This document shows positions 10,753-27,636 of a stretch of 64,000 nt of DNA, one piece after another. The stretch's first letter is position 1, and every line of letters starts with the position of its first letter. The position numbers were made by a program, and so were the translations under genes. The notes under the pieces were generated by a model, which saw only the letters and a list, made by a program, of their open reading frames with translations, was not told where the DNA came from and did no database searches. This DNA is from Woeseiaceae bacterium (GTDB taxonomy: Bacteria; Pseudomonadota; Gammaproteobacteria; Steroidobacterales; Woeseiaceae). The stretch lies in assembly GCA_051007895.1 (NCBI GenBank), contig JBPCYD010000336.1, positions 1,194 through 65,193 on the forward strand, given 5' to 3'.

Positions 10753-10753
10753 C

Positions 10754-11701
10754 ATGATGTTTGTATCCCCCGGCCGATTACGCAAACTCGGTATTGTCGG
10801 AATGAACAATCGCAATATCAATCTGATCGGCGAATTGAATCCCCGACACCTTTATCCGCTGGTCGATAACAAGCTCAAGACCAAACTTCTTGCTGCGGAG
10901 AAAGGACTGGCGACGCCGGCGCTGATCGGCGCACTTCGCACGCAGCATGATGTCCAGGGTCTTGAGTCATTCCTGGAGCCTCACGATGGCTTTGCAATAA
11001 AGCCGGCGAAAGGAAGCGGTGGTAAAGGCATTTTGGTAATCGCTGCCCGCCGCGAAGAATTTTTCGTCAAGCCCAATGGACAGGAATTGCCTATCGATGA
11101 AATCCGTCGACATGCGTCAAATATCCTGTCCGGGCTCTTTAGCCTTGGCGGCACGCCGGATTTGGCAGTAGTTGAGGAACTGATAAAACCACATGCCGCC
11201 TATAAGAACCTCTCGGTCGAAGGCGTGCCTGATATCCGCGTAATCGTTTATCGCGGCTTCCCGATCATGGCCATGATGCGACTGTCGACCCGAGAATCGG
11301 ACGGCAAAGCGAATCTTCATCAGGGCGCTATCGGCGTCGGCCTGACAATTTCCAGCGGACGACCGGTCAATGCAACTCAATTCAACCGCCGTGTGGTGGA
11401 GCACCCGGACTCGGGTGCAGACTTGATGTCGATACAGATTTCGGACTGGCCGGATCTCCTCGAAATCGCTGCACGATCAGCCGACGTCACCGGTCTTGGC
11501 TATCTCGGTTCGGATATCGTCGTCGACCGTCGTTATGGCCCGCTACTCCTGGAGTTAAACGCCCGACCAGGACTGGCGATACAGTTAGCGAACAATTGCG
11601 GATTGTCGCCTCGGATTCGGGCCATCGACAACTTAACGCCCGCCTGTTTCCGCCAGGGCCCGAAAATGCGTGTCGATCGCGCGATAGAAATGTTCGATTA
11701 G
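10754..11701 (+). CDS. Alpha-L-glutamate ligase-like (RimK-related) ATP-grasp protein
   Basis: GIVGMNNRNINLI...YPLVDNKLKTK N-terminus and FAIKPAKGSGGKGILVI ATP-grasp P-loop-like segment, followed by LLELNARPGL. The start lies 1 nt after the upstream stop. Confidence 0.8.
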   Translation: MMFVSPGRLRKLGIVGMNNRNINLIGELNPRHLYPLVDNKLKTKLLAAEKGLATPALIGALRTQHDVQGLESFLEPHDGFAIKPAKGSGGKGILVIAARREEFFVKPNGQELPIDEIRRHASNILSGLFSLGGTPDLAVVEELIKPHAAYKNLSVEGVPDIRVIVYRGFPIMAMMRLSTRESDGKANLHQGAIGVGLTISSGRPVNATQFNRRVVEHPDSGADLMSIQISDWPDLLEIAARSADVTGLGYLGSDIVVDRRYGPLLLELNARPGLAIQLANNCGLSPRIRAIDNLTPACFRQGPKMRVDRAIEMFD

Positions 11702-14401: not shown

Positions 14402-15724
14402 TTATTCCGTACCCCACTTTGTCTCGACTTTAATGCCGATTTTCTGGAGAAACCCGGTCGGGAGAATTCCGCCGGCAGAGATAATGACGGCATCATTGCG
14501 AATCCGGGCCTGCTTTTCGCCCAGCGCAATGACGACTGAGTCGTCTCGAATTTCTTTCACATTTGAATTGAGAACAACCTGTACGCGCTTCGCGCGACTC
14601 ATCGATTCTATTTTTTCCCTGTTCTTTTGCTTCGCCCGGCTAAACGCACCGGAGCGGTAAGACAATGTGACAGTCGTCCCCTCTTCTTCTGCGATACTGG
14701 TCGCCGCCTCGAGAGCGCTGTCGCCTCCACCAACGACCAGCACATGTTGATTGCGGTACTGCTCCGGATCAATCAGGCGATAGGTCACTTTAGGCAGATC
14801 CTCGCCGGGCACCCCGAGTTGCCGCGGTGAGCCACGCCGTCCAATCGAAAGAAGGACAGCACGGGTGTCGTATTCGGCCCTGTTCGTGGTTACCCGGTAA
14901 CCGATCCGGCCTTCTGCTGGCACGATTTCGTCCACGCGCTCATCATAGTTGATTGCGATTCCGGTCTTCTTTTCCACGCCCTGCCAGAAGTCGATGAGAT
15001 CTTCTTTCTGTACTTCCTTGAATTTGGTTTTGCCGATGATGGGCAGTTCTGCAGGCTGTGTCATGACGAGCTTGCGGCGCGGAAAGTGAGCGACGGTTCC
15101 GCCCAGCTCCTCCTGCTCCACGGTAACGACCTTCAGGTTGTCGACCTTGGCCGCCAGCGTTGCTGAAAAGCCTGCGGGGCCGGCACCAACGATCAGCAGG
15201 TCCAGCTCGTTGCTGTGTCCCTCTGCAAGCAGCTGGCTAATGGACGCCATCGCCTGACGACCTTGCTCAATGGCGTTGCGAATTAGCCCCATGCCGCCTA
15301 ATTCGCCCGCAATAAAAATACCGGGCATGTCCGTTTCGAAATTCGGTTTGACGACGGGAAGATCGATACCGCGGGTAGCCGTACCGAATACAAGTGTAAT
15401 CGCGTTTACGGGACAAACGGTCTTGCAGGCACCATGGCCGATACAGTCTGAGGGCCCAATCAAACGGGCCTTTTTGCCAATCATCCCGAGCACGGGATGC
15501 GCATCCTGCTCGGGACAGGCCACCACGCAGGATTTGCAGCCAATGCAAATGGTCGGGTCGATTTCCGGGTGCAGGGTCGGCGGCTCAAGCATACCGGCTT
15601 CCGTTGCCGCCTTTAACGCCTCCAGGCTTTCCCGTTCCAGGCGATTATGACGACGGATATACCAGGCCACGATGGCCAGGATGGGCAAAACGTACAGGTA
15701 GGTTAGGGAGTCCGGATTAAACAT
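14402..15724 (-). CDS. Membrane-anchored 2x[4Fe-4S] ferredoxin domain fused to an FAD/NAD(P) pyridine nucleotide-disulfide oxidoreductase-like domain
   Basis: N-terminal TM helix (YLYVLPILAIVAWYI), cluster motifs CIGCKSCVVACP and CIGHGACKTVCP, dinucleotide folds VGAGPAG and VGGGDSA. The start is uncertain: ATG at 15724 versus TTG at 15811. Confidence 0.7.
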   Translation of the reverse strand: MFNPDSLTYLYVLPILAIVAWYIRRHNRLERESLEALKAATEAGMLEPPTLHPEIDPTICIGCKSCVVACPEQDAHPVLGMIGKKARLIGPSDCIGHGACKTVCPVNAITLVFGTATRGIDLPVVKPNFETDMPGIFIAGELGGMGLIRNAIEQGRQAMASISQLLAEGHSNELDLLIVGAGPAGFSATLAAKVDNLKVVTVEQEELGGTVAHFPRRKLVMTQPAELPIIGKTKFKEVQKEDLIDFWQGVEKKTGIAINYDERVDEIVPAEGRIGYRVTTNRAEYDTRAVLLSIGRRGSPRQLGVPGEDLPKVTYRLIDPEQYRNQHVLVVGGGDSALEAATSIAEEEGTTVTLSYRSGAFSRAKQKNREKIESMSRAKRVQVVLNSNVKEIRDDSVVIALGEKQARIRNDAVIISAGGILPTGFLQKIGIKVETKWGTE

Positions 15725-16089
15725 TTGTTTGCAGTAACGAGTCTTGAGGAAAGCATATCGCGGCCAAGAACAAAGCTCATGAAGCAGTTCACGCAACGGA
15801 AATTCTGACAACCCGCTACAGCGAGTCGACGTCTCGAACGCTCGCTAGCGGTGATTTTTTCTGCCTGTTTTTCGTTTCTCCGTGCGAATGATTCTCATTG
15901 CACCAAAAACTGTCGCCAGTGTGCGACACACATCTGATTTTATTAAGAATATCTGTGACACAGGGGAACCAAGACGAATGACAGAACGTGTATTTATACA
16001 AGGTACACGGACACGGCACCGGATGAGAGTTTCGTTGCCGTACCGCGTCAAGAAAAATCGTTGGTTTGTTTCAGATAAGGCTTGTGCAA

Positions 16090-16956
16090 ATGTCGATCAT
16101 GTTTTGGGGAATTGCGATTACGATGTTAGTTGTCGCGATAGGGGTGCTTGCAATACCCATGCGGGCGGGCAATGCCCGCCAGCCGATTATTGTCGTTATG
16201 CTGCTGGTGCCTGCGATTGCCGTTGGGCTTTATTCGAACATCGGCTCGCCGCAGGCCGCCTCGTTGGGCAGCGATGACAGGCAGGCCCAACCTGCAACGA
16301 GTGGCTCTGCCACAAACCGCGCAGCACAATCTCGTTCAGGACAATCTGTCGGCTCTGTCGCGAGCATGTTAGCGGGACTCGAAGGACGATTGGAACGCGA
16401 ACCGAACGATGCCGGAAGCTGGTTACTACTGGCAAAGTCATACCAGCATCTCAACCGGCTCGAAGATGCCGTCGCAGCCTACGAACGAGCGAGCGAGCTC
16501 GGAAAAAGTGACGTTGCCCTGGAAAAGTTGCTCGTCGAAGCCGGACAGGTAATCCAGCCTCCTGCAGATGATAGCCGCCCCGCGTTGCGTGGCCGGGTAT
16601 CGCTGTCGGCCGATGCCGATGAACTGGTCAGTCCTGATGACACCGTATTCATATTCGCAAAAGAATCTCGCGAACACCGGATGCCGGTCGTTGCTTTGCG
16701 CAGGCCCGCATCGGAATTGCCGCTTGATTTTATCCTGACCGACGACGACGCCATGGTCGCCGGCACGCGACTGGAGGATTACGAACAGCTCGTGATCACG
16801 GCGAAAATTTCACGATCTGGTATGGCGACAGACGCGGTCGATGGACTTGAATCATGGAGTGAAGCTGTTTCTCCGCGCGATCAACAGAAGATTGAACTCG
16901 TGATCACCGGAGGCGCCGCCGACGGTGCGCCAAATTCGGCAGACAACGATGAATGA
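16090..16956 (+). CDS. ccmI: CcmI/CycH-like c-type cytochrome biogenesis (apocytochrome chaperone) protein
   Basis: MSIMFWGIAITMLVVA... two N-terminal TM helices, a TPR segment (GSWLLLAKSYQHLNRLEDAVAAYERASELG) and a C-terminal block DTVFIFAKESREHRMPVVALRRPASELPLDFILTDDDAM...VITAKISRSG typical of CcmI. AAGG lies 9 nt upstream of the ATG at 16090. Confidence 0.7.
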   Translation: MSIMFWGIAITMLVVAIGVLAIPMRAGNARQPIIVVMLLVPAIAVGLYSNIGSPQAASLGSDDRQAQPATSGSATNRAAQSRSGQSVGSVASMLAGLEGRLEREPNDAGSWLLLAKSYQHLNRLEDAVAAYERASELGKSDVALEKLLVEAGQVIQPPADDSRPALRGRVSLSADADELVSPDDTVFIFAKESREHRMPVVALRRPASELPLDFILTDDDAMVAGTRLEDYEQLVITAKISRSGMATDAVDGLESWSEAVSPRDQQKIELVITGGAADGAPNSADNDE

Positions 16957-17857
16957 GGCGACTGCAGAGCGCGAATTTCCGCCCAACCCGCTGACGGGCC
17001 GGATCTTCGGCACGCGGGACAGCCGCCAGGGCAGCGCATTCTATGGCTACTCACTGACGACACTTGCAATCGGCATTGGCTGGTTGTTGCGCGACTATGG
17101 CCTGATCAATCCGGAGGAAGGTCTCGGGTACTGGCTCGGCATCATCGGCGGATCGATGATGCTGGTGCTACTCCTCTATCCCCTTCGGAAAAGGATAAAA
17201 GCGCTGCGTTTTCTTGGCGGCACGACGCGATGGTTCAGTGCGCACATGATACTCGGCATTGTGGGCCCCGTGCTCGTCCTGTATCACAGCAATTTCCAGC
17301 TTGGCTCGTTCAATAGCAGGGTTGCGCTGTACTGCATGTTGCTCGTTGCTGGCAGCGGGGTTGTAGGACGACACATCTATGCACACATTCATCGGGGTCT
17401 CTACGGGCAAAAAATCTCGCTGTCTGAACTGCGCAATGATCTAAATGACTCCCTGGAAAACAACCAAGGCCTCGCGACACTCCTGCCGGAGCTGACGGCG
17501 CGACTGAGCGTGCTGACGGCCGAGGTCCAGGGCGACAGCATCACAGGAGCGATGAGCACTCGCGCAAGCGTCATGTGGACCCTGAAGCAGTATTTCGTGT
17601 GGATATCGCTGCAATACACGGTTCATCGGGAGCTGAACGACCAGGCGGCAAGCTCTCCCGCTATCGCGAATGACCTGCCGCGACTCAAACGCACGAGCTT
17701 TGCCTATATACGAAATTTTGTTCGACTTACTGGGCGAGTAGCCCAGTTCACGCTGTACGAGAGACTTTTTGCGCTGTGGCACATCCTGCACATGCCGTTC
17801 TTTTTCATGATGGTCATTTCAGCCCTGATACACGTCCTGGCTGTGCATATGTACTGA
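16949..17857 (+). CDS. His-rich 5-TM inner-membrane protein (possible b-heme/quinone-linked module), family not recognised
   Basis: Four N-terminal TM helices, a ~110-aa soluble insert and one C-terminal TM. His residues sit within or at helix ends (SAHMILGIVGPVLVLYH, GRHIYAHIH, LWHILHMPFFFMMVISALIHVLAVH). The ATG at 16949 overlaps the ccmI stop by 8 nt. Confidence 0.6.
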   Translation: MNEATAEREFPPNPLTGRIFGTRDSRQGSAFYGYSLTTLAIGIGWLLRDYGLINPEEGLGYWLGIIGGSMMLVLLLYPLRKRIKALRFLGGTTRWFSAHMILGIVGPVLVLYHSNFQLGSFNSRVALYCMLLVAGSGVVGRHIYAHIHRGLYGQKISLSELRNDLNDSLENNQGLATLLPELTARLSVLTAEVQGDSITGAMSTRASVMWTLKQYFVWISLQYTVHRELNDQAASSPAIANDLPRLKRTSFAYIRNFVRLTGRVAQFTLYERLFALWHILHMPFFFMMVISALIHVLAVHMY

Positions 17858-17879
17858 ATCACCGTAAGCATTAACCAAC

Positions 17880-19448
17880 ATGACGGAGACAAGACGAGGA
17901 CTTTTTGGATTACTAGCGATGCTCGCAACAATCACAAGTTTGCCTGCGACTGCTCAGACCATTGAGTCGCTAGTCATGCCGGACGAAGTTATCGCGGGGC
18001 ATGCAGACATCGAGACCGAATGCTCCTTGTGTCACAAGGCGTTCAATCGATCCGAACAGCGTGCTCTGTGCCTCGATTGCCACGAGTTGGTCGCTATCGA
18101 TATAGAGCTGAATCTCGGCTATCACGGCAGAGCCAGTGACGCTCGTGAAGATGAGTGCGCGTCCTGCCACACCGATCACGAAGGGCGAGATGCAGAGATT
18201 GTCATTCTCGACGAAGAAGCCTTTGACCACGACTTCACGGATTTCGAACTGTTGGGTGATCACGCTGAGGCCGAGTGTATCGATTGCCATGTGCAGGAAG
18301 ACAAGCATCGTGACGCTGCAACCGAATGCGGCACCTGTCACGCCGATGACAAGCCACATGCTGAAGATCCCGCGGAGTTATGCACCGACTGCCACAACGA
18401 GTCCGGGTGGGACGATGTTCATTTCGACCATGACACAACGGATTACGAGCTTATCGGGAAGCATGCGGAGACCGCCTGCATTGACTGCCATGAAGTCGAG
18501 AAATTTGCCGACACGCCCGACAACTGTTTCGCGTGTCACGCCGAAGACGATGAACATGATGGACGCAGCGGCGAGCAGTGCGAAAATTGCCACAACCCCA
18601 GCGCGTGGAACGATTCGAGTTTCGACCATGAGCGCGACACGGACTTTTCACTGGTGGGACGTCACGCTGAATTGAGCTGTGATGATTGCCACAGTGACGA
18701 TCCCTTCAGTGATGAGATGGAAATGGCCTGTGTCGGTTGTCACCTGGAAGATGACGAACATGATGGTCACAACGGGACCGCCTGCGCCGACTGCCATTCC
18801 AATGACGCATGGACTGACAGCCAGTTTGACCACGCACGAGACGCTGACTATGCGCTAAACGGCTCGCACGCCGGGGTGGTCTGTGTTGACTGCCATATTG
18901 AACCTGTCTTCGAAACTAAATTGGAGCAAGACTGCGTGTCCTGTCACCGGGACGACGATCCACACAATGGTTCGCAGGGAAACGCCTGCGCCGATTGCCA
19001 CAATGAAACACAGTGGGAAGACGTTCCGTTCTTCGACCACGACCTGACCCGATTTCCGCTGCTCGGCGAGCACGGCAACATTGAATGCGAAGATTGCCAC
19101 GAGACGAAAGTATTCTCGGAAACCGAATCTGAGTGTCTTAGCTGTCACGTTGAGGACGATCCGCACGATGGCGTTTACACCGTTGAGTGCGAATCGTGTC
19201 ATAACCCTGTCGCCTGGGATCTGTGGCTCTTCGACCACAACACGAACACCGATTTCCTGCTTGGCGGCGCGCACCTGGATGTCGAATGCAGCGACTGCCA
19301 CAGAAGCTCCCTCCAATCCATGCAAAAGATCGGTGCTCGCTGCATCGATTGTCATCGAGCGGATGACATCCACGATGGAGAGTTCGGGCCAGACTGTGGG
19401 CGCTGTCATAGCGACACAACGTTTGAAGAAGTGAGGTCATTGCAATGA
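17880..19448 (+). CDS. 21-heme c-type cytochrome made of 7 tandem triheme (c7/c3-like) modules
   Basis: I counted 21 CXXCH motifs in 522 aa. There is an N-terminal signal peptide (cleavage near ATA-QT). FDH anchors at aa 115, 182, 248, 316, 385 and 451 give a ~67-aa module period, and each module carries at least 3 extra His. Confidence 0.95.
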   Translation: MTETRRGLFGLLAMLATITSLPATAQTIESLVMPDEVIAGHADIETECSLCHKAFNRSEQRALCLDCHELVAIDIELNLGYHGRASDAREDECASCHTDHEGRDAEIVILDEEAFDHDFTDFELLGDHAEAECIDCHVQEDKHRDAATECGTCHADDKPHAEDPAELCTDCHNESGWDDVHFDHDTTDYELIGKHAETACIDCHEVEKFADTPDNCFACHAEDDEHDGRSGEQCENCHNPSAWNDSSFDHERDTDFSLVGRHAELSCDDCHSDDPFSDEMEMACVGCHLEDDEHDGHNGTACADCHSNDAWTDSQFDHARDADYALNGSHAGVVCVDCHIEPVFETKLEQDCVSCHRDDDPHNGSQGNACADCHNETQWEDVPFFDHDLTRFPLLGEHGNIECEDCHETKVFSETESECLSCHVEDDPHDGVYTVECESCHNPVAWDLWLFDHNTNTDFLLGGAHLDVECSDCHRSSLQSMQKIGARCIDCHRADDIHDGEFGPDCGRCHSDTTFEEVRSLQ

Positions 19449-22156
19449 CTTTTGCAGAAATAGGTTTAGCGAGAGCGTCAGCGCGAGCCGAACATTTTGG
19501 TGTCGTCCTGCTGATTGCTGCACTGATTGTCACGGTATTCCAGGCACCGGCACACGCACAACAATCATTCGACCACTTCAGTACCGGATTCATTCTGGAC
19601 GGAGCACATACCAACGTCACCTGTGAAGGATGTCACGTCAGTGCGGCGTTTGGCCCGACAGACCAGAGTTGTACCAGCTGCCATTCTCAGGGCGGACTGG
19701 TGCGGGCATCCGCAAAACCAGTCAATCATGTATTGACGTCCGGGGAGTGCTCCGATTGCCACGTCACTGCGAACTGGAGTGCCATAGCCTACATGGATCA
19801 TTCTTCGATCACCGGAAGCTGCGCCACCTGTCACAACGGGATCCAGTCGACCGGGAAGACCCTGGATCACGTATCGTCAGGCGACCAGTGCGATGACTGC
19901 CATACGACCACGGCCTGGCTACCTGCAGTATTTGATCATAGCGGCGTTGTCGGCAACTGCGTGAGCTGCCATAACGGACTCAGTGCGACTGGAAAACACC
20001 AGGCACATATTGCCAGTGGCAATACCTGTGAAAACTGTCACACGACCATCGGCTGGGTGCCGGCCAACTTCGATCATGTGAACGTCTTTGGCAACTGCGT
20101 CAGCTGCCACAATGGCACAGACGCCACCGGCAAGAATCCGACGCACATCCAGTCAACCAATGTCTGCGAGGATTGCCATAGCCCAACAGTATGGATTCCG
20201 CCAATTATGGTCGACCATACGCAGGTTATAGGCACCTGCGGCTCATGTCATGACGGCACAACGGCGACCGGCAAGCACCCGACCCATATCGCCAGCAGCG
20301 ACAGCTGCGATGATTGCCACAGCACGATTGGCTGGGTGCCTGTCAATTTCGATCACGCAAACATCACAGACAACTGCTTTAGCTGCCACAACGGGTCGGA
20401 AGCCATAGGCAAACACCCGCTTCACGTACAGACAACGAACGTCTGTGAAGACTGTCACAGCACAAATGTCTTCTCGCCGGTAACGACTGTTGACCATACC
20501 CAGGTCATAGGTAGCTGCGCCTCATGTCACAACGGCACAGACGCGATCGGCAAGAGCGCCGCTCACGTACGAACAACGGACGTTTGCGAAGACTGTCATA
20601 CGACGGTCGCATTCGTACCCGTAACCATTGTCGATCATACCCAGGTGCTGGGGAGCTGCGGCTCCTGCCACGACGGGGTTACCGCGACGGGCAAAAACCA
20701 GGGGCATATCGCCAGCGGCAACAACTGCGACGACTGCCACAGCACGGTCGGCTGGTTGCCGGCCAACTTCGACCACGTGAATATCATGGGAAATTGTATC
20801 AGCTGCCATAACGGTGTTGATGCAACCGGCAAGGGACCCGCACATATCCAAACTACGGATGTATGCGAAGACTGTCATTCAACGAACGTATTTACGCCGG
20901 CAATGATCGTTGATCACACGCAGGTGCTCGGCACGTGCAGCTCTTGCCACAACGGTACGACGGCGACCGGCAAGAACCAGGGGCATATCGCCAGCGGCGA
21001 TACCTGCGACGATTGTCACAGCACGTTTGGCTGGCTACCGGCAAATTTCAATCACCTGAATATCATGGGCAATTGCATAAGTTGCCACAACGGCACCGAG
21101 GCAACCGGCAAGAACGTCGGGCACATCAATACATCTGACGTCTGCGAAGACTGTCATGCGACCAATGTATTTGCGCCGGTGATGACGGTTGATCATACGC
21201 AGGTGCTCGGCACGTGCAGCTCATGCCACGACGGCCTCACCGCCGTTGGCAAACATCCAACGCATATTCCCAGCGGCAATACCTGCGACGACTGCCACAC
21301 AACCGCAGGCTGGCTGCCCGCGACGTTCGACCACGCAACCATTACGGGTGGCTGCGTCAATTGCCACAACGGCGCTGACGCAACCGGTAAGAATCCAACG
21401 CATCCATTGACCACAAATGTCTGCGAGGACTGCCACTCCACTAACGTGTTCGTGCCCGTTATTGTGGTTGACCACACCCAGGTGCTGGGCGCGTGCGGAT
21501 CGTGTCACGATGGGGTTACGGCGACGGGCAAGTCGCCGAATCACATTACGAGCGGCAACAACTGCGACGACTGCCACAGCACAGTTGGCTGGCTGCCGGC
21601 CAACTTCGACCACGTCAATATTGCGGGTAACTGCTTCAGCTGCCATAACGGCACGGACGCAACCGGCAAAAATCCGACGCACGTTCAAACAACCAACGTT
21701 TGTGAAGACTGCCACACGACTAATGTGTTCGCGCCGGTATTCACGGTTGACCACACCCAGGTCCTGGGATCTTGCTCGACCTGTCACAACGGCGTATCGG
21801 CAGCGGGCCAGAATGCCGGTCACTTTAACACCAACGTCGAATGTGACGTCTGCCATACGTCAAATGGATGGACACCTGCGGACTATCGACATGCGACCCT
21901 GCCGTATGAACCGCAGGACCATCGCGGCAACCTGCAGTGTACCGAATGTCATACGCAGAATTCGGAGTTGATCCCCTGGCAGAACGCTGCGTTCCAACCT
22001 GACTGCGCGGGCTGTCATGCGAATGACTACCGACCCAACAAACACGAAGCTGCAAACGGTGGCAATGAGACTGTAAGTCAGAATCGCGATTGCGCGGGTG
22101 CGTGTCATCAAAAGAACAGTTTCCACAGAATTTCGGACTCGGGTTGGGACAGATAG
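19445..22156 (+). CDS. 36-heme c-type cytochrome: 3 N-terminal hemes, 15 tandem diheme (paired-CXXCH) modules, 3 C-terminal hemes
   Basis: I counted 36 CXXCH motifs in 903 aa. Signal peptide ...APAHA-QQ. The repeated unit is (F/V)DH-x7-C-x2-CH-(N/D)G-x3-(T/I)GK-x3-H-x6-C-x-(D/N)-CH. The start is an ATGA overlap with the upstream stop. Confidence 0.95.
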   Translation: MTFAEIGLARASARAEHFGVVLLIAALIVTVFQAPAHAQQSFDHFSTGFILDGAHTNVTCEGCHVSAAFGPTDQSCTSCHSQGGLVRASAKPVNHVLTSGECSDCHVTANWSAIAYMDHSSITGSCATCHNGIQSTGKTLDHVSSGDQCDDCHTTTAWLPAVFDHSGVVGNCVSCHNGLSATGKHQAHIASGNTCENCHTTIGWVPANFDHVNVFGNCVSCHNGTDATGKNPTHIQSTNVCEDCHSPTVWIPPIMVDHTQVIGTCGSCHDGTTATGKHPTHIASSDSCDDCHSTIGWVPVNFDHANITDNCFSCHNGSEAIGKHPLHVQTTNVCEDCHSTNVFSPVTTVDHTQVIGSCASCHNGTDAIGKSAAHVRTTDVCEDCHTTVAFVPVTIVDHTQVLGSCGSCHDGVTATGKNQGHIASGNNCDDCHSTVGWLPANFDHVNIMGNCISCHNGVDATGKGPAHIQTTDVCEDCHSTNVFTPAMIVDHTQVLGTCSSCHNGTTATGKNQGHIASGDTCDDCHSTFGWLPANFNHLNIMGNCISCHNGTEATGKNVGHINTSDVCEDCHATNVFAPVMTVDHTQVLGTCSSCHDGLTAVGKHPTHIPSGNTCDDCHTTAGWLPATFDHATITGGCVNCHNGADATGKNPTHPLTTNVCEDCHSTNVFVPVIVVDHTQVLGACGSCHDGVTATGKSPNHITSGNNCDDCHSTVGWLPANFDHVNIAGNCFSCHNGTDATGKNPTHVQTTNVCEDCHTTNVFAPVFTVDHTQVLGSCSTCHNGVSAAGQNAGHFNTNVECDVCHTSNGWTPADYRHATLPYEPQDHRGNLQCTECHTQNSELIPWQNAAFQPDCAGCHANDYRPNKHEAANGGNETVSQNRDCAGACHQKNSFHRISDSGWDR
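19793..21874 (+). repeat. In-frame tandem coding repeat with 138-141-nt half-unit and 279-nt full unit (diheme and tetraheme modules)
   Basis: VDHTQV anchor codons start at 20210, 20489, 20630, 20909, 21188, 21467 and 21746, giving spacings of 279, 141, 279, 279, 279 and 279. The first 47 nt of the units at 20909 and 21188 differ at 3 positions. An identical 32-nt run occurs at 20714 and 21551. Confidence 0.9.
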
Positions 22157-22162
22157 TCATCA

Positions 22163-24619
22163 ATGAGTGCCTGCTTCCAAAAACCGATAGCACTGCTTTC
22201 GTTAGTCCTTCTTTCAGCAGGCACATTTGCCGCCCCTGGCTTTATTGTTGGTTCGAAGATTAGGGGAGGCACGAATGTTGCCGAGATTACGATTCAATTC
22301 GCCTGTGCGGTTGAGTATGTCGATCATTTTCCGGCCAACGAATCCGATCGAGTAAGAATTCAAATCGAATCGACGACGTTGTGTAACGGCGTCCCGCCGA
22401 CTGTTGCCTACGCGCGCGAGCAACATCGGCCCGCAGATGCGGAGATAGCAAAGCTGCTTGAAATCACTTACGACGGCGAATCCGAGACCGACCAGGCATT
22501 AACACTGGCTTTTAGCGAAACGGTCAGCTTTGGAATCGAACAGAACGGCACGTCGAGCGACATGGTTATTCGCGTTTATCCAAACAAAGAAACGCAAGTG
22601 AAACAGCCGATTCCCCGATCTACCTCCGTGCGCACCGTCCAGGACACCGCTGAACCGTCATCCTATGTGATTAACCTGTCATCCAGTCAGATTCCACATG
22701 CACCGTCCGAAATGCAGGCCGTTTCTGTTTCAGCCGAACTCAAGGTTTTCGAATCTGAGGTCTTGCTTGCAGGTTCTACCTGGTATCGGTTGCGAGTCGG
22801 AACTTTCGAAAGCACCGGGGATGCACAAACCGAGCTTCGCAAACTACGTGCTCAGTATCCCGCGGCCTGGATTGACCGCGCACCGGAGTCGACGAACGGT
22901 GAAATCGGCAATGAACTAGCGGAAAGCGAACCCTTGCTCAATGACGCCGGTGACGTCGCAGCGGCCTTCGCGACGATGGGGCTTGATCAGATCGACCAAC
23001 TGATGGTGGACGCTCGATTGGCAATGGTGGCAGGTGAGACGTCCCGGGCTATACAAATTTACACCAAGGTTTTGCGAGGCCCATCCAGCGACCGGCACGC
23101 GCAGGCACAGGAATACCTGGCACTGGCGCGGGAAAAGAACGGACAAAAGGCGCATGCCAGGTCTGAATACCAGCGCTATCTGCAGCTTTACCCGGACAAT
23201 GAAGGTACCGCCCGGGTGCAGCAACGCCTCGCAGCATTGCTGGCCAGCGAGCGTCAGGTGGTGTCCGCCCCGGCAAGCACGCCGGGGACCGCAACAACCG
23301 GCAGAAGATCTGTTCGCAACCCGAGCGCTTGGCGGTTTCAGACGTTCTTTTCCCAGTACTATCGACGCGACGTCAATCAGCCCAACGAACAGGCTGACAT
23401 TGTCAGTCAGTCGGCACTCTATTCCGACATCAATCTGGACATCAGGCGGCGCGGCCAGAGATTCGATTTCAGCAGCAGGCTTTCTGCCGGCTATCGCAAT
23501 GATTTTCTCGACGAAGATCAGGGCTCGGGCGACCAGGCACGGGTTTCATATGCATACGCTGATCTTGCCGACGCCGAAACGGGACTGCGGGGAAGAATAG
23601 GTCGACAATCCAGAAACACCGGTGGCATCCTGGGCCGATTCGATGGTCTGAACATTGGCTACCAGGCAAGTGAACGCATACTGGTCAACGCAGTTGCGGG
23701 AATTCCGGTCAATTCAGCGTCAGACAGTATCGACTCTGAACGCACTTTCCAGGGATTGAGCGTCAACTACGGTCCGCTGCTCGACAACCTCGAGTTGGGC
23801 GCGTATTTCATTAGCCAGAGTATCGAGGGCATTGAAGATAGAACCGCGACCGGCGCCGAGTTTCGCTACTTTGGCGAGAACCACAACCTCTGGGGTCTCG
23901 TTGATTACGATACTTCGTACAGCGAACTTGGCAGTGCATTCCTGCAGGGCAGCTGGCGAGTGACGCCACGTCTCAGTGTACACGGCTCGGTTGACCGGCG
24001 GCACACCCCGTACCTGAGTTCGCGTAACGCGATGATTGGGCAACCAGTGCAAACATTCGCCGAGATGCTCGTGCTGTACTCCGAGGCCGAGATTCATCAG
24101 TTCAGCATTGACCGCTCGCCGCTCAGCGAGTCGTACACGATCGGATTGTCGCAGTCGTTCTCGCCCAGGCTGCAAATCAATTTTGATGCCAATCAAACGA
24201 CGATCGACGCTACGCCGGAATCGGGGGGTGTGTTGGCGATTCCGGAATCGACGTTTCGGTATGTTGCGACCACGCTGGTAGCAAGCAGCCTGATCACGGA
24301 AGGCGATGTACTGATGGTTTCTCTCCGGGCGTCAGATTCAAATACGACGAAGGTCTCCTCAATGACCCTGGATACTCGTTTCCCTCTGGGCAGATCCTGG
24401 CGTGTCAATCCGCGCCTACGTGTTGATCGACGACAAATTCTGTCCGATTCGTCCATTGAGTGGTTGTATACGCCCGGCCTGCGAATACAGATTCGTAACA
24501 GCCAGCGGTACCGCATCGATCTTGAGGCAGGCAAGCGTTTCTCGGAGCGCGACTCCCCAATACTGAATCTGGATCGCGAATCGTATTTCGTCAACCTCGG
24601 CTACCAGGTGTTTTTTTGA
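22163..24619 (+). CDS. Large outer-membrane protein: signal peptide, N-terminal beta-rich domain, SPOR-like domain, TPR region, C-terminal beta-barrel
   Basis: Signal peptide LLSLVLLSAGTFAAP. SPOR-like YVINLSS...WYRLRVGTFESTGDAQTELRKLRAQYPAAWI (about 22658-22876). TPR-like helices at about 22985-23236. About 430 aa of alternating amphipathic strands end in the OMP beta-signal NLGYQVFF. The start lies 6 nt after the cytochrome stop. Confidence 0.75.
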   Translation: MSACFQKPIALLSLVLLSAGTFAAPGFIVGSKIRGGTNVAEITIQFACAVEYVDHFPANESDRVRIQIESTTLCNGVPPTVAYAREQHRPADAEIAKLLEITYDGESETDQALTLAFSETVSFGIEQNGTSSDMVIRVYPNKETQVKQPIPRSTSVRTVQDTAEPSSYVINLSSSQIPHAPSEMQAVSVSAELKVFESEVLLAGSTWYRLRVGTFESTGDAQTELRKLRAQYPAAWIDRAPESTNGEIGNELAESEPLLNDAGDVAAAFATMGLDQIDQLMVDARLAMVAGETSRAIQIYTKVLRGPSSDRHAQAQEYLALAREKNGQKAHARSEYQRYLQLYPDNEGTARVQQRLAALLASERQVVSAPASTPGTATTGRRSVRNPSAWRFQTFFSQYYRRDVNQPNEQADIVSQSALYSDINLDIRRRGQRFDFSSRLSAGYRNDFLDEDQGSGDQARVSYAYADLADAETGLRGRIGRQSRNTGGILGRFDGLNIGYQASERILVNAVAGIPVNSASDSIDSERTFQGLSVNYGPLLDNLELGAYFISQSIEGIEDRTATGAEFRYFGENHNLWGLVDYDTSYSELGSAFLQGSWRVTPRLSVHGSVDRRHTPYLSSRNAMIGQPVQTFAEMLVLYSEAEIHQFSIDRSPLSESYTIGLSQSFSPRLQINFDANQTTIDATPESGGVLAIPESTFRYVATTLVASSLITEGDVLMVSLRASDSNTTKVSSMTLDTRFPLGRSWRVNPRLRVDRRQILSDSSIEWLYTPGLRIQIRNSQRYRIDLEAGKRFSERDSPILNLDRESYFVNLGYQVFF

Positions 24620-25224
24620 TGATCATAAATGCCAAGATATTCAAGCGATCCGGCATGTCCGGGCTTATCGGGCTAGTCGTCGTTTGCATCCTGGCTGGAT
24701 GCGCGGCATCCGCTCCTGAGATCAGGAACAAACTGGATCCGTCAACCGGGGTAACGATTACCTACAGCAGCGTGCCGCTGATCATGTATCGGGAAGACCC
24801 GGCGCAGGCGGCGTTCGCACGAAATTACGTACACGTCGGCCCGATCCAGGTAAATCGAAGTGGCAACTATCAGTATTTTCTGTGGCTTGGCGTATGGAAC
24901 AATATGCAGGATCTCAATTCAACGTCGCATCGGGACGGACTCGGCTCAATCGTTATTTTCGCCGATGGCGAACCGCTTTCGCTCGAGATAAGCGGCTGGA
25001 CACCGGACGCCATCGGCACGAGTGAGCCCGTTTACCTGAAGCCGGTTGCGTCATCCGCCGACGCCTACTACCGGGTTACTGCGGACCAGATCAGACTAAT
25101 TGCAGAGGCCACAGATATTCGCTTACGAACCTCGGGTGCAAAACCTCGGGAATTCGAGCCATGGGACGGTCAATTGGCCGCGCGAAACGATTTGCAGGAA
25201 TTTTTGCGGCGGACTTTATTCTAG
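24619..25224 (+). CDS. Small lipoprotein of unknown function (last gene of the cytochrome operon)
   Basis: MIINAKIFKRSGMSGLIGLVVVCILAGC lipobox. The start overlaps the stop of the outer-membrane gene (TGATG). No family recognised. Confidence 0.6.
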   Translation: MIINAKIFKRSGMSGLIGLVVVCILAGCAASAPEIRNKLDPSTGVTITYSSVPLIMYREDPAQAAFARNYVHVGPIQVNRSGNYQYFLWLGVWNNMQDLNSTSHRDGLGSIVIFADGEPLSLEISGWTPDAIGTSEPVYLKPVASSADAYYRVTADQIRLIAEATDIRLRTSGAKPREFEPWDGQLAARNDLQEFLRRTLF

Positions 25225-25274
25225 ATCGTTCAATTGCGATACGATGCAGCATCATATTCGTAACGAGCGTGACT

Positions 25275-26123
25275 ATGTCCGGCGACAGAAAAAACTACCG
25301 ACCGATGGAGGATTCCATCCGGACCGATCTGCAGGGAAGTATGCGCTACGGCGACTACCTGCAGCTCGACAGGATCCTGCAATCTCAACAGCCGCTGTCG
25401 TCAGAACATGACGAAATGCTTTTCATTATCATCCACCAGGCGAGCGAACTCTGGTTGAAACAGGCCTGTTTCGAAATTGCTGCCGCTATCGGCAACGTTC
25501 AAAACTCTAATTTCCGGCACGCATTCAAGGTCATCTCGCGCGTCAAGCAAATTCTCAATCAAATGGTCCAGTCGTGGGGCATTCTCTCGACGCTTACGCC
25601 GGTCGACTATCACAGCTTTCGCGACCGCCTGGGCAGCGCCTCGGGATTTCAGTCATATGGCTATCGGAAACTCGAGTTTCTGTTGGGGAACAAGAACGCC
25701 GATATTCTCAAGGTTCATAGGGATACTGGATTCGCCTATGAAGAACTGGAACGGGTTCTGCATGAACCGTCGCTTTACGACGAGGTGATCAGAAAACTGC
25801 ACGAGGCCGGCTTCGACATCGATTCGACCGTAATCGAGCGCGATGTCACACTGCCATACGAGCCGAATGACTCCGTCAAACAGGCCTGGCTGACGATTTA
25901 CAAAAACGCGGACAAAAACTTCGAGTTTTATGAGTTGGCAGAGAAGCTGGTCGATATAGAGGACGCGTTTCAGCAATGGCGATTCAAGCACATGTACACG
26001 GTACAGCGCATAATCGGCCAGCAGGTCGGAACCGGGGGTTCTTCCGGTGTCAGTTTCCTGAAGAAGGCGCTGGATATCAGCTTTTTTCCTGAACTCCTTA
26101 GCCTGCGTTCAGAACTCCCCTGA
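25275..26123 (+). CDS. kynA: Tryptophan 2,3-dioxygenase
   Basis: YGDYLQLDRILQSQQP.S..HDEMLFIIIHQASELWLK and GSSGVSFLKK blocks match bacterial TDO. The ATG at 25275 is preferred over the track start at 25161. Confidence 0.85.
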   Translation: MSGDRKNYRPMEDSIRTDLQGSMRYGDYLQLDRILQSQQPLSSEHDEMLFIIIHQASELWLKQACFEIAAAIGNVQNSNFRHAFKVISRVKQILNQMVQSWGILSTLTPVDYHSFRDRLGSASGFQSYGYRKLEFLLGNKNADILKVHRDTGFAYEELERVLHEPSLYDEVIRKLHEAGFDIDSTVIERDVTLPYEPNDSVKQAWLTIYKNADKNFEFYELAEKLVDIEDAFQQWRFKHMYTVQRIIGQQVGTGGSSGVSFLKKALDISFFPELLSLRSELP

Positions 26124-26172
26124 GAGCGAATCGCATTTACCTGGTTGATACCGGCATTGCGGAGAGGGCTCA

Positions 26173-27636
26173 ATGACTGCAGAAATCACCGACGTCATCA
26201 TCGTCGGTGCAGGACTGTCCGGTATCGGCTCAGCCTGCCACCTGCAACAGAAGTGTCCCGACAAACATTATCTGATTCTGGAGGGCCGTGAATCGGTCGG
26301 TGGCACGTGGGATCTGTTTCGTTACCCGGGAATACGATCCGACAGCGATATGCACACCTTAGGCTATGAATTCAAACCGTGGCGAGCGCAGAAAGCCATC
26401 GCCGATGGCCCTGCAATCCTCGACTACATTAAAGAGGCTGCCGCGGAACACCAGGTCGGGGAGCATATCCGCTATCAGCATCAGGTCAGGAAGGCTGACT
26501 GGTCCAGCGATGAGCATTTGTGGACGCTCGAGGTAACCGACAGCAAAACGGCTGCGGTCAAAAAATTCAAATGCAATTTTTTGCTGATGTGCGCCGGATA
26601 CTACGACTACAAGGGCGGATACGAACCGCAGATTAGCGGTCGAGCAGACTTTCAGGGCGACATTGTGCACCCACAGGAATGGCCGGAAGACCTGGGCTAC
26701 GGCGACAAGAATATAGTCGTGATCGGCTCCGGAGCTACGGCAGTAACGTTGATTCCGGAGCTTGCCAAAGAGGCTAAACACGTCGTGATGTTGCAGCGAT
26801 CGCCAACTTACATGGCATCCATGCCCGACACGGACCGCATCGCAAACTTCTTGCGCAAAGTACTACCGGAAAAATGGGCTTATACGGTAACCCGCTGGAA
26901 AAATGTCAAGCTCCAGCAGATCGTGTATTACAGTACCCGTGTCGCACCCAAATTCATCAAAAGAAAGCTAATCAAGCGGGTACGCAAGGAACTGGGCGAA
27001 AACGCCGATATCGAAAAAAACTTCACACCTCTGTATGACCCCTGGGATCAAAGACTTTGCCTGGTGCCCAATGGCGACCTGTTTGAGTCGCTACGGTCCG
27101 GCAGAGCTTCTGTCATAACAGACAAGATATCTGCGATTACCGCCAGCGGGATTCGCCTGGAATCCGGCCGTGAGGTTGGCGCAGATATCATTGTTACAGC
27201 TACCGGCCTTAGTTTGTGCCTACTTGGCGACGTGCAGGTCTCGGTTGATGGCGAATCGGTGAATTTCGCCGAAAAATACTCCTACAAGGCGATGATGTTT
27301 TCGGATGTGCCGAACCTGGTTTCAATCTTCGGTTACATCAATGCTTCATGGACACTACGAGCCGACCTCGTCGCGGACTATGCGTGCCGACTGATCAATC
27401 ACATGACGATCGCGAATTCCCGACAATGCACGCCTCGGCTGCGTGGAAGATATCGGGATATGAACGCAAAGCCGTGGATTGAAAATTTCTCGTCCAACTA
27501 CATTCAACGCAAGCAACATCTGCTGCCTAGACAGGGCGATCGTCACCCCTGGCTCAATACACAGAATTACTCAATGGAGAAGAAACTGATTCGCGACAGC
27601 GATGTCGTGGACGATGTCCTTGAGTTTCTCGGCTAG
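26173..27636 (+). CDS. EthA-like class B flavoprotein (Baeyer-Villiger) monooxygenase
   Basis: GAGLSG and GSGATA Rossmann motifs, BVMO fingerprint FQGDIVHPQEWP, and long colinear similarity to my recollection of EthA (GGTWDLFRYPGIRSDSDM, LQRSPTY, WDQRLCLVPNGDLF). GGAGAGGG RBS. Confidence 0.85.
   Translation: MTAEITDVIIVGAGLSGIGSACHLQQKCPDKHYLILEGRESVGGTWDLFRYPGIRSDSDMHTLGYEFKPWRAQKAIADGPAILDYIKEAAAEHQVGEHIRYQHQVRKADWSSDEHLWTLEVTDSKTAAVKKFKCNFLLMCAGYYDYKGGYEPQISGRADFQGDIVHPQEWPEDLGYGDKNIVVIGSGATAVTLIPELAKEAKHVVMLQRSPTYMASMPDTDRIANFLRKVLPEKWAYTVTRWKNVKLQQIVYYSTRVAPKFIKRKLIKRVRKELGENADIEKNFTPLYDPWDQRLCLVPNGDLFESLRSGRASVITDKISAITASGIRLESGREVGADIIVTATGLSLCLLGDVQVSVDGESVNFAEKYSYKAMMFSDVPNLVSIFGYINASWTLRADLVADYACRLINHMTIANSRQCTPRLRGRYRDMNAKPWIENFSSNYIQRKQHLLPRQGDRHPWLNTQNYSMEKKLIRDSDVVDDVLEFLG

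Follow-up and report, generated by a model that had tools for sequence, protein, structure and literature searches.

A PCC3-type cytochrome cluster of a Woeseiaceae bacterium with a conserved Fe-S flavoprotein gene: a candidate electron route from NAD(P)H to the cell exterior

The PCC3 class of gene clusters was defined by He, Barco, Emerson and Roden in 2017 as a porin, two multiheme cytochromes (MHCs), one extracellular and one periplasmic, and a conserved protein of the inner membrane (IMP) of about 300 amino acids (aa) with five transmembrane (TM) helices, which carries SGXXG on TM4 and WX3HX13H on both TM3 and TM5 (PMC5566968). The cytochromes hold a median of 34 (extracellular) and 21 (periplasmic) hemes, with very few aa per heme and with internal repeats (PMC5566968). 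Named members occur in Sideroxydans lithotrophicus (Slit_1446-1449 and Slit_0867-0870), Leptothrix cholodnii SP-6 and the Riftia endosymbiont; in S. lithotrophicus ES-1, Slit_1446, 1447, 1448 and 1449 encode the IMP, the periplasmic cytochrome, the extracellular cytochrome and the porin, respectively. The class has since been surveyed in Gallionellaceae and Leptothrix. Here we describe a PCC3-type cluster in a stretch of 64,000 nucleotides from a Woeseiaceae bacterium (contig JBPCYD010000336.1), the whole of which is referred to as the window. According to the literature, Woeseiaceae are core members of marine sediment communities; their multiheme cytochromes were noted in 2019 to cluster with those of L. 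cholodnii (PMC6850669), and "mtrCAB-like" genes were noted in sediment Woeseiaceae in 2025 (PMC12175321). Taken as a whole, the locus is best explained, at a probability of roughly 0.55, as a PCC3 of seven rather than six genes, in which an Fe-S flavoprotein encoded beside the IMP gene would feed electrons from NAD(P)H into a chain leading to the cell exterior. The locus comprises the following features, all positions being those of the window:

14402-15724, minus strand: u1, membrane-anchored oxidoreductase with a predicted 2x[Fe-S] ferredoxin domain and an FAD/NAD(P)H domain, divergent from g1
15725-16089, 365 bp: intergenic region between u1 and g1, presumed from its position to hold the promoters of both genes
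16090-16956, plus strand: g1, CcmI/CycH-like protein; overlaps g2 by 8 nt
16949-17857, plus strand: g2, PCC3-type IMP; 22-nt gap to g3
17880-19448, plus strand: g3, 21-heme cytochrome c; ATGA overlap with g4
19445-22156, plus strand: g4, 36-heme cytochrome c; 6-nt gap to g5
22163-24619, plus strand: g5, 818-aa outer-membrane protein; TGATG overlap with g6
24619-25224, plus strand: g6, small lipoprotein with its ATG start at 24619; last gene of the cluster

Listing and translation of the open reading frames (ORFs) reproduced all six plus-strand genes of 16090-25224 together with every coupling-type junction that had been described in an earlier reading made from the sequence alone (the sequence-only reading). 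That reading had taken the locus to be these six genes; the genes stood, whereas the extent did not, as the divergent u1 belongs to the locus. The junctions and the conserved synteny suggest that g1-g6 are co-transcribed, and a scan of the locus for consensus promoters and terminators returned hits at or below the shuffled expectation, none of them significant. In the rest of the window, no ccm, type II secretion or quinol-dehydrogenase genes were found among the ORFs scanned.

The genes g2-g3-g4-g5 are contiguous and coupled, and their order is that of the four core genes Slit_1446-1449. As in the published PCC3 clusters, they encode a 300-aa protein with five TM helices, SGXXG and two WX3HX13H motifs, a 21-heme, predicted periplasmic cytochrome of seven repeats of ~66 aa, an outer cytochrome within the range of ~34-39 hemes at ~25 aa per heme, and a 22-strand porin, the number of strands also assigned to the porin of L. 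cholodnii. For the Riftia endosymbiont, the corresponding cytochrome is described with 21 hemes, seven ~66-aa repeats and 26 aa per heme (PMC5566968 supplement). Since gene order, heme counts, repeat architecture and IMP motifs all match the definition, with the type members from Sideroxydans ES-1 and L. cholodnii SP-6 compared by published description and not by sequence, we assign the locus to PCC3 with high confidence as its Woeseiaceae member. The sequence-only reading had pointed to this resemblance, which held for every feature compared, and the parts of a trans-envelope multiheme conduit that it listed are present. It knew of no experimental characterisation of such a system, in agreement with papers up to June 2026, those of 2025-2026 included, which still call PCC3 predicted or functionally untested. 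Its proposal of a novel conduit has to be given up, as the cluster belongs to a class defined in 2017 and surveyed later, with the clustering of Woeseiaceae and L. cholodnii cytochromes noted in 2019, and is not a new kind of system. The nearest genomic loci are from Woeseia sp. and Woeseiaceae metagenome-assembled genomes (72-76% identity in g2), and the closest g5 homologues are likewise named Woeseia or Woeseiaceae.

In comparison to the published four-gene PCC3, the locus contains three more conserved genes, namely those for the divergent Fe-S flavoprotein, the CcmI-like protein and the lipoprotein, and, as a further difference from the published description, the first 362 residues of g5 form soluble beta-sandwich, SPOR and TPR domains. 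The supplements of He et al. do not mention Woeseia, SPOR, TPR or CcmI, and their text mentions no FAD, ferredoxin or pyridine-nucleotide protein for PCC3. A literature search found no paper combining PCC3 with flavoprotein terms, which is an absence from the searchable literature and not proof of novelty.

In its proposed overall logic, a periplasmic MHC inserted in a barrel of the outer membrane that a surface cytochrome may or may not join, the locus agrees with MtrCAB of Shewanella and with MtoAB/PioAB. However, a comparison with the Mtr, Pio and Geobacter systems, which had been suggested as a check, yielded either no match or sub-threshold matches to the Pfam and NCBIfam models. Against the DmsE/MtrA decaheme model TIGR03508, g4 reached 150 bits (cut-off 192) and g3 35 bits; the OmcA/MtrC model TIGR03507 gave 17.5 bits (cut-off 209), and g5 had no MtrB_PioB match in Pfam at E<=0.1. 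In contrast to MtrCAB, the cytochromes carry 21 and 36 hemes instead of 10, the outer one has no lipobox and a CymA-type quinol dehydrogenase is missing. The only match to a Geobacter-type model was the GSU2203 decaheme model (85 bits, cut-off 325), and the OmbB-OmaB-OmcB/Ext complexes, in which the periplasmic cytochrome is an octaheme protein and the outer one a dodecaheme lipoprotein, differ in their heme counts and in the lipobox that g4 lacks. On these comparisons we place the locus outside the Mtr/Mto/Pio and Geobacter families.

To follow the conservation of u1 we used 88 loci related to this one, 80 of them from metagenomes, 4 from genomes and 4 obtained by protein look-up, with 36-76% identity to g2; they keep the arrangement. 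The metagenomic loci are the best 80 of at least 600 stretches that matched a pattern scan built from 35 sequences with YERLFxLWH; they are mostly marine relatives (41-72% identity) and phylogenetically uneven. In all 35 surveyed loci with enough sequence u1 lies beside the IMP gene, divergently in 33 and co-directionally in two (L005 and L006), in which it is part of the same operon, upstream of g2. Six further loci (L089 and L091-L095) show the same adjacency and bring the count to 41/41. Among these, two look-ups anchored on the barrel gene (L091, L092) returned the same seven genes, and in three more distant ones (36-45% identity) u1 again adjoins g2. The cultured Bacteroidota strain Emticicia oligotrophica DSM 17448 carries a PCC3-type operon on plasmid pEMTOL02, with junctions that abut or overlap and the order ccsA (1,029 aa), g2 homologue, u1 homologue, 23-heme cytochrome, 40-heme cytochrome, 538-aa hypothetical protein and GW-domain protein. 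Its u1 homologue abuts the IMP gene, overlaps the 23-heme gene and is 46% identical to u1, whereas the IMP, with both HX13H motifs and SGXXG present, is 28% identical to g2. Because u1 sits inside this operon at the higher identity, it appears to be the best-conserved protein of the module and to be embedded in it, and it is rather likely to be a functional partner of the conduit.

The u1 protein consists of an N-terminal TM helix with basic residues, a ferredoxin domain and a two-Rossmann FAD/NAD(P)H domain (Pfam Fer4_10 and Pyr_redox_2/3). The ferredoxin domain carries CIGCKSCVVACP and CIGHGACKTVCP, with the cluster motifs CX2CX2CX3CP and CX2HX2CX3CP, and the nucleotide-binding motifs are GAGPAG and VVGGGDSA; 38-39 of 40 homologues keep these motifs, including the histidine of the second cluster motif. 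The closest solved structures are YpdA/Bdr (7a7b, E=5e-23), thioredoxin reductases and ferredoxin-NADP reductases of the thioredoxin reductase (TrxR) type. Like the TrxR-like ferredoxin-NADP reductases (FNRs) and YpdA, u1 combines two-Rossmann FAD and NAD(P)H domains with the absence of a redox-active CxxC or any cysteine pair. As its score against TIGR04018 (159 bits) lies below the equivalog cut-off of 340, u1 is a relative and not an orthologue. Its domains and motifs suggest that it could serve as a cytoplasmic electron-input module. A DsbD-like pathway, in which u1 and g2 would supply thiol reduction to the apocytochromes, was considered and rejected, as u1 has no CxxC and g2 only one cysteine.

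In the distant loci, a protein of 520-695 aa without a Pfam match is encoded together with the flavoprotein gene, with which it appears co-transcribed:

L005, 8439-10004: 520-695-aa class protein, matching ankyrin-repeat and Sel1-like NCBIfam models
L007, 6311-8311: the same class, matching the same NCBIfam models
L093, 5167-7221: the same class
L094, 4567-6600: the same class
L095, 4727-6814: the same class

The window has no counterpart of this gene; there, u1 is followed by a GGDEF gene. On plasmid 3 of Variovorax sp. WDL1 (L090, 6824-10510), a smaller relative of the module lies among copper-resistance genes. It consists of a 691-aa 2Fe-2S protein, a short membrane protein resembling g2 and a protein of the cytochrome c3 family with 7 hemes, and it lacks a porin.

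The second component that bears on the input of electrons is g2, which had been described as a His-rich membrane protein with five TM helices and indeed has 302 aa, 10 histidines, one cysteine and five TM helices, with the N-terminus inside and the C-terminus outside. It carries W95-H99-H113 on TM3, S136-G-V-V-G140 (SGVVG) on TM4 and W277-H281-H295 on TM5, and between TM4 and TM5 a basic, helical cytoplasmic loop of ~119 aa. Across 110 representatives H113, H281, H295, S136, G137, G140 and W277 are invariant and H99 is present in 109, and 107/113 representatives carry all PCC3 IMP motifs. Lysine and arginine counts over the 110-sequence alignment place the N-terminus, loop 2 (5.3, with no acidic residues) and the 119-aa loop 4 (20.5) in the cytoplasm and loops 1 and 3 outside. 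By this positive-inside topology one histidine pair lies at each membrane face, H99/H281 at the cytoplasmic and H113/H295 at the periplasmic one. This is the geometry expected of a transmembrane di-heme pair, and we propose from the motifs that g2 is a transmembrane di-heme b protein, for which the basic loop would offer an obvious docking surface for u1. AlphaFold modelled g2 with a pLDDT of 88.6 and a pTM of 0.79; g2 itself matched no Pfam or NCBIfam family, and a profile search of Protein Data Bank (PDB) sequences with g2 returned only coiled-coil noise on the cytoplasmic loop.

In eukaryotic and bacterial enzymes of the NOX/FRE type, electrons pass from NAD(P)H to a flavin and on to two b hemes held by two histidine pairs on two TM helices, outward across the membrane, and in the MsrQ/Fre system the cytosolic flavin reductase Fre is a protein separate from MsrQ. 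The proposed pair of u1 and g2 resembles these systems in the two histidine pairs on two TM helices and, as in MsrQ/Fre, in the separate flavoprotein. It differs in that neither sequence nor fold searches clearly placed g2 in the ferric-reductase domain family (PF01794), to which one of 35 relatives gave a weak Pfam match, that u1 is a dehydrogenase of the TrxR/YpdA type with a 2x[Fe-S] ferredoxin domain and not a plant-type FNR, and that the acceptor would be a 57-heme wire instead of O2, Fe(III) chelates or MsrP. The two-HX13H arrangement of the PCC3 IMP is common to the ferric-reductase domain family (PMC5566968). On its motifs, g2 may therefore work like a ferric-reductase-domain or cytochrome b561-type protein, without being assignable to those families on the searches made.

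The g2 family counts 2,455 representatives at 50% identity and has no Pfam or NCBIfam model of its own, and among the 600 metagenomic stretches listed 595 encode a relative of g2. Longer homologues (429-679 aa) were inspected for Rosetta-stone fusions and this candidate was rejected, as the extensions are of low complexity or SPOR-like and contain no CcmI-like or flavoprotein domain. Some g2 homologues (P0158 and P0136) have long N-terminal extensions with SPOR-like domains on the predicted cytoplasmic side, which is odd for a peptidoglycan-binding domain and may reflect miscalled starts or a different topology. Three records of the family (P0314, P0341, P0356) are named "pyridine nucleotide-disulfide oxidoreductase" or "transcriptional regulator", which look like annotation errors, the former name perhaps carried over from the neighbouring flavoprotein gene.

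The conserved position of u1 also bears on the published PCC3 model, in which the IMP is a quinone-reactive cytochrome b through which the complex delivers electrons, taken from Fe(II) or minerals outside the cell, to the quinone pool (lithotrophic electron uptake), and u1 would be a neighbour with a role of its own. He et al. proposed it from the HX13H motifs and the host habitats (PMC5566968), PCC3 occurs in known Fe(II) oxidisers, and Woeseiaceae at metal-sulfide chimneys express cytochromes of the type used for extracellular electron transfer (PMC6850669); a quinone site in g2 is compatible with everything found here. However, the adjacency of u1 in 41/41 loci and its place inside the Emticicia operon are hard to explain for an unrelated gene, and Pfam and NCBIfam scans of the locus detected no quinol dehydrogenase-type gene (CymA/NapC, NrfD or bc1-like). 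The quinol-linked input assumed in the sequence-only reading thus finds nothing in the locus to support it; what adjoins the IMP gene instead is the conserved gene for an NAD(P)H-type Fe-S flavoprotein. Many PCC3 hosts are not Fe(II) oxidisers (PMC5566968), and PCC3 proteins were low or undetected on magnetite. In ES-1, growth on Fe(II) lowered the expression of both PCC3 clusters (PMC8788666), so that a role in Fe(II) oxidation is not favoured, and overall we consider quinone-linked uptake unlikely.

The 57 heme sites of the cluster were confirmed by motif count, with 21 in g3 and 36 in g4. All 21 motifs of g3 are CXXCH, as had been read, while in g4 the count of 36 hemes stood and the motif type had to be amended to 35 CXXCH plus one CX3CH (CAGACH). 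The g3 protein is acidic (14% Asp), has a Sec signal peptide and 24.9 aa per heme, and is built of seven triheme c7-like repeats of ~67 aa; g4 has a signal peptide, no lipobox, 25.1 aa per heme and ~15 diheme repeats of ~46.5 aa rich in T/S/G/N. Both match c7/c3-type multiheme domains in Pfam and NCBIfam. Histidines number 45 in g3 and 79 in g4, and as this is about twice the heme counts, bis-His ligation of the 21 and 36 hemes would fit. A cytochrome corresponding to g3 is present in 58/58 loci with enough sequence and has exactly 21 motifs in 53 of them. In complete g4 homologues, by contrast, the heme number ranges from 11 to 52 and moves in steps of about four (27, 31/32, 36, 39/40, 43/44, 47, 52), which argues that the outer wire evolves in length as repeat units are added or lost, with the inner wire fixed at 21. 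A repeat unit of this size is visible in the g4 DNA, where Tandem Repeats Finder reported 72% matches and a score of 985:

20528-21768, plus strand: tandem repeat within g4, period 279 bp (93 aa, four hemes), 4.4 copies

We propose g3 as the periplasm-spanning wire and, by analogy with the known conduits, g4 as a candidate extracellular wire. Type II secretion could be the route of export for the outer cytochrome. One related locus, L007, has an MshE/T2SS-E ATPase gene 7 kb upstream of its cluster.

The outer-membrane protein g5 ends in LGYQVFF, consistent with the described 818-aa protein ending in YQVFF. Its AlphaFold model (mean pLDDT 80) starts with a signal peptide, followed by soluble domains and the barrel:

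aa 28-139: beta-sandwich (AlphaFold)
aa 166-241: SPOR fold (AlphaFold; Pfam SPOR at 199-237)
aa 264-362: three TPR-like hairpins (AlphaFold; Pfam TPR at 284-348)
aa 389-818: barrel of ~22 strands (AlphaFold), ending in YQVFF
aa 620-650: helical insert within the barrel (AlphaFold)

The SPOR-like and TPR domains previously noticed on this protein were hence recovered by Pfam (residues 199-237 and 284-348), whereas the notion of a giant barrel was not, as the first 362 residues form three soluble domains and the ~22 strands are confined to residues 389-818. For the Riftia-symbiont PCC3 porin, 40 "transmembrane regions" were reported; this count probably included strands of soluble domains, and the earlier counts for PCC3 porins, which reach 40-42 strands, are probably too high for this subtype. 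From barrel geometry we estimate a C-alpha diameter of ~40 Å, which would be enough for a slim heme chain and speaks against the too-small lumen that the sequence-only reading had named as a possible objection. SPOR domains bind peptidoglycan, and with such a domain in g5 the complex is probably pinned to the cell wall.

The fold of g5 also permits a different view, in which the barrel with its SPOR and TPR domains and the lipoprotein would have nothing to do with the cytochromes and would form a device that exports polysaccharide or something else. Foldseek matches of g5 include the alginate exporter AlgE and pilus ushers, and the combination of TPR and lipoprotein recalls AlgK/AlgE. Yet the matches are to generic outer-membrane barrels only (FimD, AlgE, Occ porins, PfeA, pilus ushers), at 8-12% identity and with TM-scores of 0.2-0.3 against the full query, and the operon contains no glycosyltransferase or polysaccharide genes. 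In 22/22 complete loci the barrel gene is paired with both cytochrome genes, and the barrel homologues found independently of the cytochromes (L091, L092), out of 701 g5 homologues found, sit in the same cytochrome cluster; an association with polysaccharide export had been named as refuting a conduit. The export view is thus largely refuted by synteny already and very improbable.

The same barrel data weigh on the idea that g3 and g4 both stay in the periplasm as an electron store, with the SPOR/TPR barrel serving envelope anchoring or another export. Published work has suggested that large numbers of hemes may serve as a capacitor, g4 carries an ordinary Sec signal peptide without a lipobox, secretion genes were absent among the ORFs scanned in the window, and the helical insert of g5 could plug the barrel. 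On the other hand, in each of the complete loci (22 surveyed plus L091 and L092) the barrel gene comes after the cytochrome genes and is joined to them by coupled junctions, the barrel is by geometric estimate wide enough for a slim heme chain, and one related locus (L092) has a type II secretion set (GspE/F/G/H/I/J/K-like; 16900-22409) 4 kb downstream of its homologous seven-gene cluster. We regard a purely periplasmic store as improbable and an envelope-spanning conduit as a probable function of the cluster.

The remaining two genes are accessory in our reading. The predicted lipoprotein gene g6 was confirmed by its lipobox LAGC with Ala at +2; it has no Pfam or NCBIfam family match and follows the barrel gene in 20/22 loci and in L091 and L092. 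The g1 protein, described before as a stand-alone CcmI, has two TM helices at its N-terminus, followed by a short TPR region and an Ig-like domain of the CycH type, the latter with 83 bits against a cut-off of 27 for Pfam Ig_CycH (E=1e-23). The Ig domain and TM helices thus support the description, whereas the TPR region is reduced and below the cut-offs of the CcmI models (TPR_CcmH_CycH, 33 versus 42 bits; TIGR03142, 19.8 versus 29.3 bits). A precedent is NrfG of the E. coli NrfEFG heme lyase, a TPR membrane protein encoded with the cytochrome that it helps to mature. Like NrfG and CcmI/CycH, g1 is a TPR-containing membrane protein, and it is encoded with the cytochromes that it would help to mature; it carries the Ig-like domain of CycH, but its TPR region is much shorter and falls below the CcmI and NrfG model cut-offs, and unlike NrfEFG there are no heme-lyase genes in the window. 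At least 45/56 related loci contain g1; in Emticicia the System II gene ccsA stands beside the IMP gene in its place, and in a distant relative (L094, 17311-18924) the housekeeping genes ccmC-ccmD-ccmE-ccmF follow directly after the PCC3-type cluster. As these maturation genes recur, a dedicated maturation aid for apocytochromes of 21-52 hemes seems to be part of the module.

The preferred seven-gene reading builds on what the genes encode, on their motifs, topology and predicted folds and on the strictness with which the parts occur together, and it can be drawn as follows. Membrane-anchored u1 would take electrons from NAD(P)H on the cytoplasmic side via FAD and two Fe-S clusters and pass them to g2, whose two b-type hemes would be stacked across the inner membrane, one held by H99/H281 on the cytoplasmic and one by H113/H295 on the periplasmic side. 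The periplasmic heme would reduce g3, whose seven triheme modules would be long enough to span the periplasm; g3 would enter the 22-strand barrel of g5, which its SPOR domain would hold to the cell wall and which may present a TPR platform, and hand the electrons to the 36-heme g4 at the cell surface. A dedicated chaperone, g1, would mature the very long apocytochromes, and g6 may be an outer-membrane lipoprotein accessory. The net result would be a quinone-independent wire with NOX/FRE-like logic that unloads reducing equivalents from the cytoplasm onto acceptors outside the cell, for example Fe(III)/Mn(IV) oxides.

With an NAD(P)H-linked u1, outward flow would be thermodynamically natural and helped by the membrane potential, and inward flow from Fe(II)-type donors to NAD(P)+ would be strongly uphill. 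The lower expression of both ES-1 clusters on Fe(II) agrees with this. Outward flow would then conserve no energy and would provide a sink for electrons, used to balance redox or to dissolve metal oxides reductively. This direction is advanced tentatively. Tentative, too, is the general claim that PCC3 is a continuous protein-bound chain from cytoplasmic NAD(P)H to the surface that bypasses the quinone pool, and not a quinone-linked Fe(II) oxidase; such a chain would combine an IMP fold without a solved relative, a cell-wall-anchored barrel and a surface wire of 22-52 hemes.

Several findings weigh against the NAD(P)H-to-exterior reading. By exporting electrons from NAD(P)H, such a wire would run down the membrane potential, and its benefit would then have to lie in redox balancing and not in energy conservation. 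The g2 model has no significant structural neighbour in the PDB by Foldseek (best E=0.76), and matches of its relatives to di-heme families in Pfam are weak and sporadic (DUF4405 in 6/35, Ferric_reduct in 1/35 with E=0.002, Ni_hydr_CYTB in 1/35); hence it is the motifs that argue for heme b binding by g2. The surface position of g4 is drawn from analogy, given a protein without lipobox and a window without a secretion system. In most loci u1 is divergent, so that its linkage is one of synteny, with operons in L005/L006 and Emticicia only, and its nearest characterised relatives reduce disulfides or ferredoxin, which does not fix its partner. The u1-adjacency counts do not include the type PCC3 clusters of Sideroxydans ES-1 or L. 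cholodnii, and the supplement of the ES-1 transcriptome does not list the genes flanking PCC3. Finally, the literature up to 2026 holds no experiment on any PCC3.

To the published class our analysis adds a conserved flavoprotein as a likely partner, a maturation gene that recurs, the domains that make up the porin and a heme number that varies through repeats. The conservation of u1 argues that PCC3, commonly labelled an iron oxidase, may be labelled wrongly or incompletely, and it turns the function of the cluster into a concrete biochemical question, namely whether NAD(P)H reduces the cytochromes through u1 and g2. If the bypass is real, PCC3 would be a Gram-negative, envelope-spanning counterpart of the NOX/FRE enzymes, kept from Gammaproteobacteria to Bacteroidota and abundant in marine sediments. 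PCC3 is widespread, with ~2,455 IMP family representatives at 50% identity and at least 595 metagenomic stretches with a relative, and a working electron wire in Woeseiaceae would bear on benthic iron, manganese and sulfur cycling.

Some further genes of the window were noted. Directly downstream of the cluster, 25161-27636 encodes a tryptophan 2,3-dioxygenase, whose start is probably after ~25300 (the Pfam match begins at ORF residue 58), and a flavin monooxygenase; this pair is not kept beside the cluster in other loci and is apparently unrelated to it. The stretch 9214-11701 encodes a 7TM protein whose transglutaminase domain is inactive and, paired with it, a sugar-transfer-associated ATP-grasp protein. 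At 35611-37230 on the minus strand, a Rieske [2Fe-2S] domain forms the N-terminal part of an unusual fusion with an FMN domain of the glutamate-synthase type.

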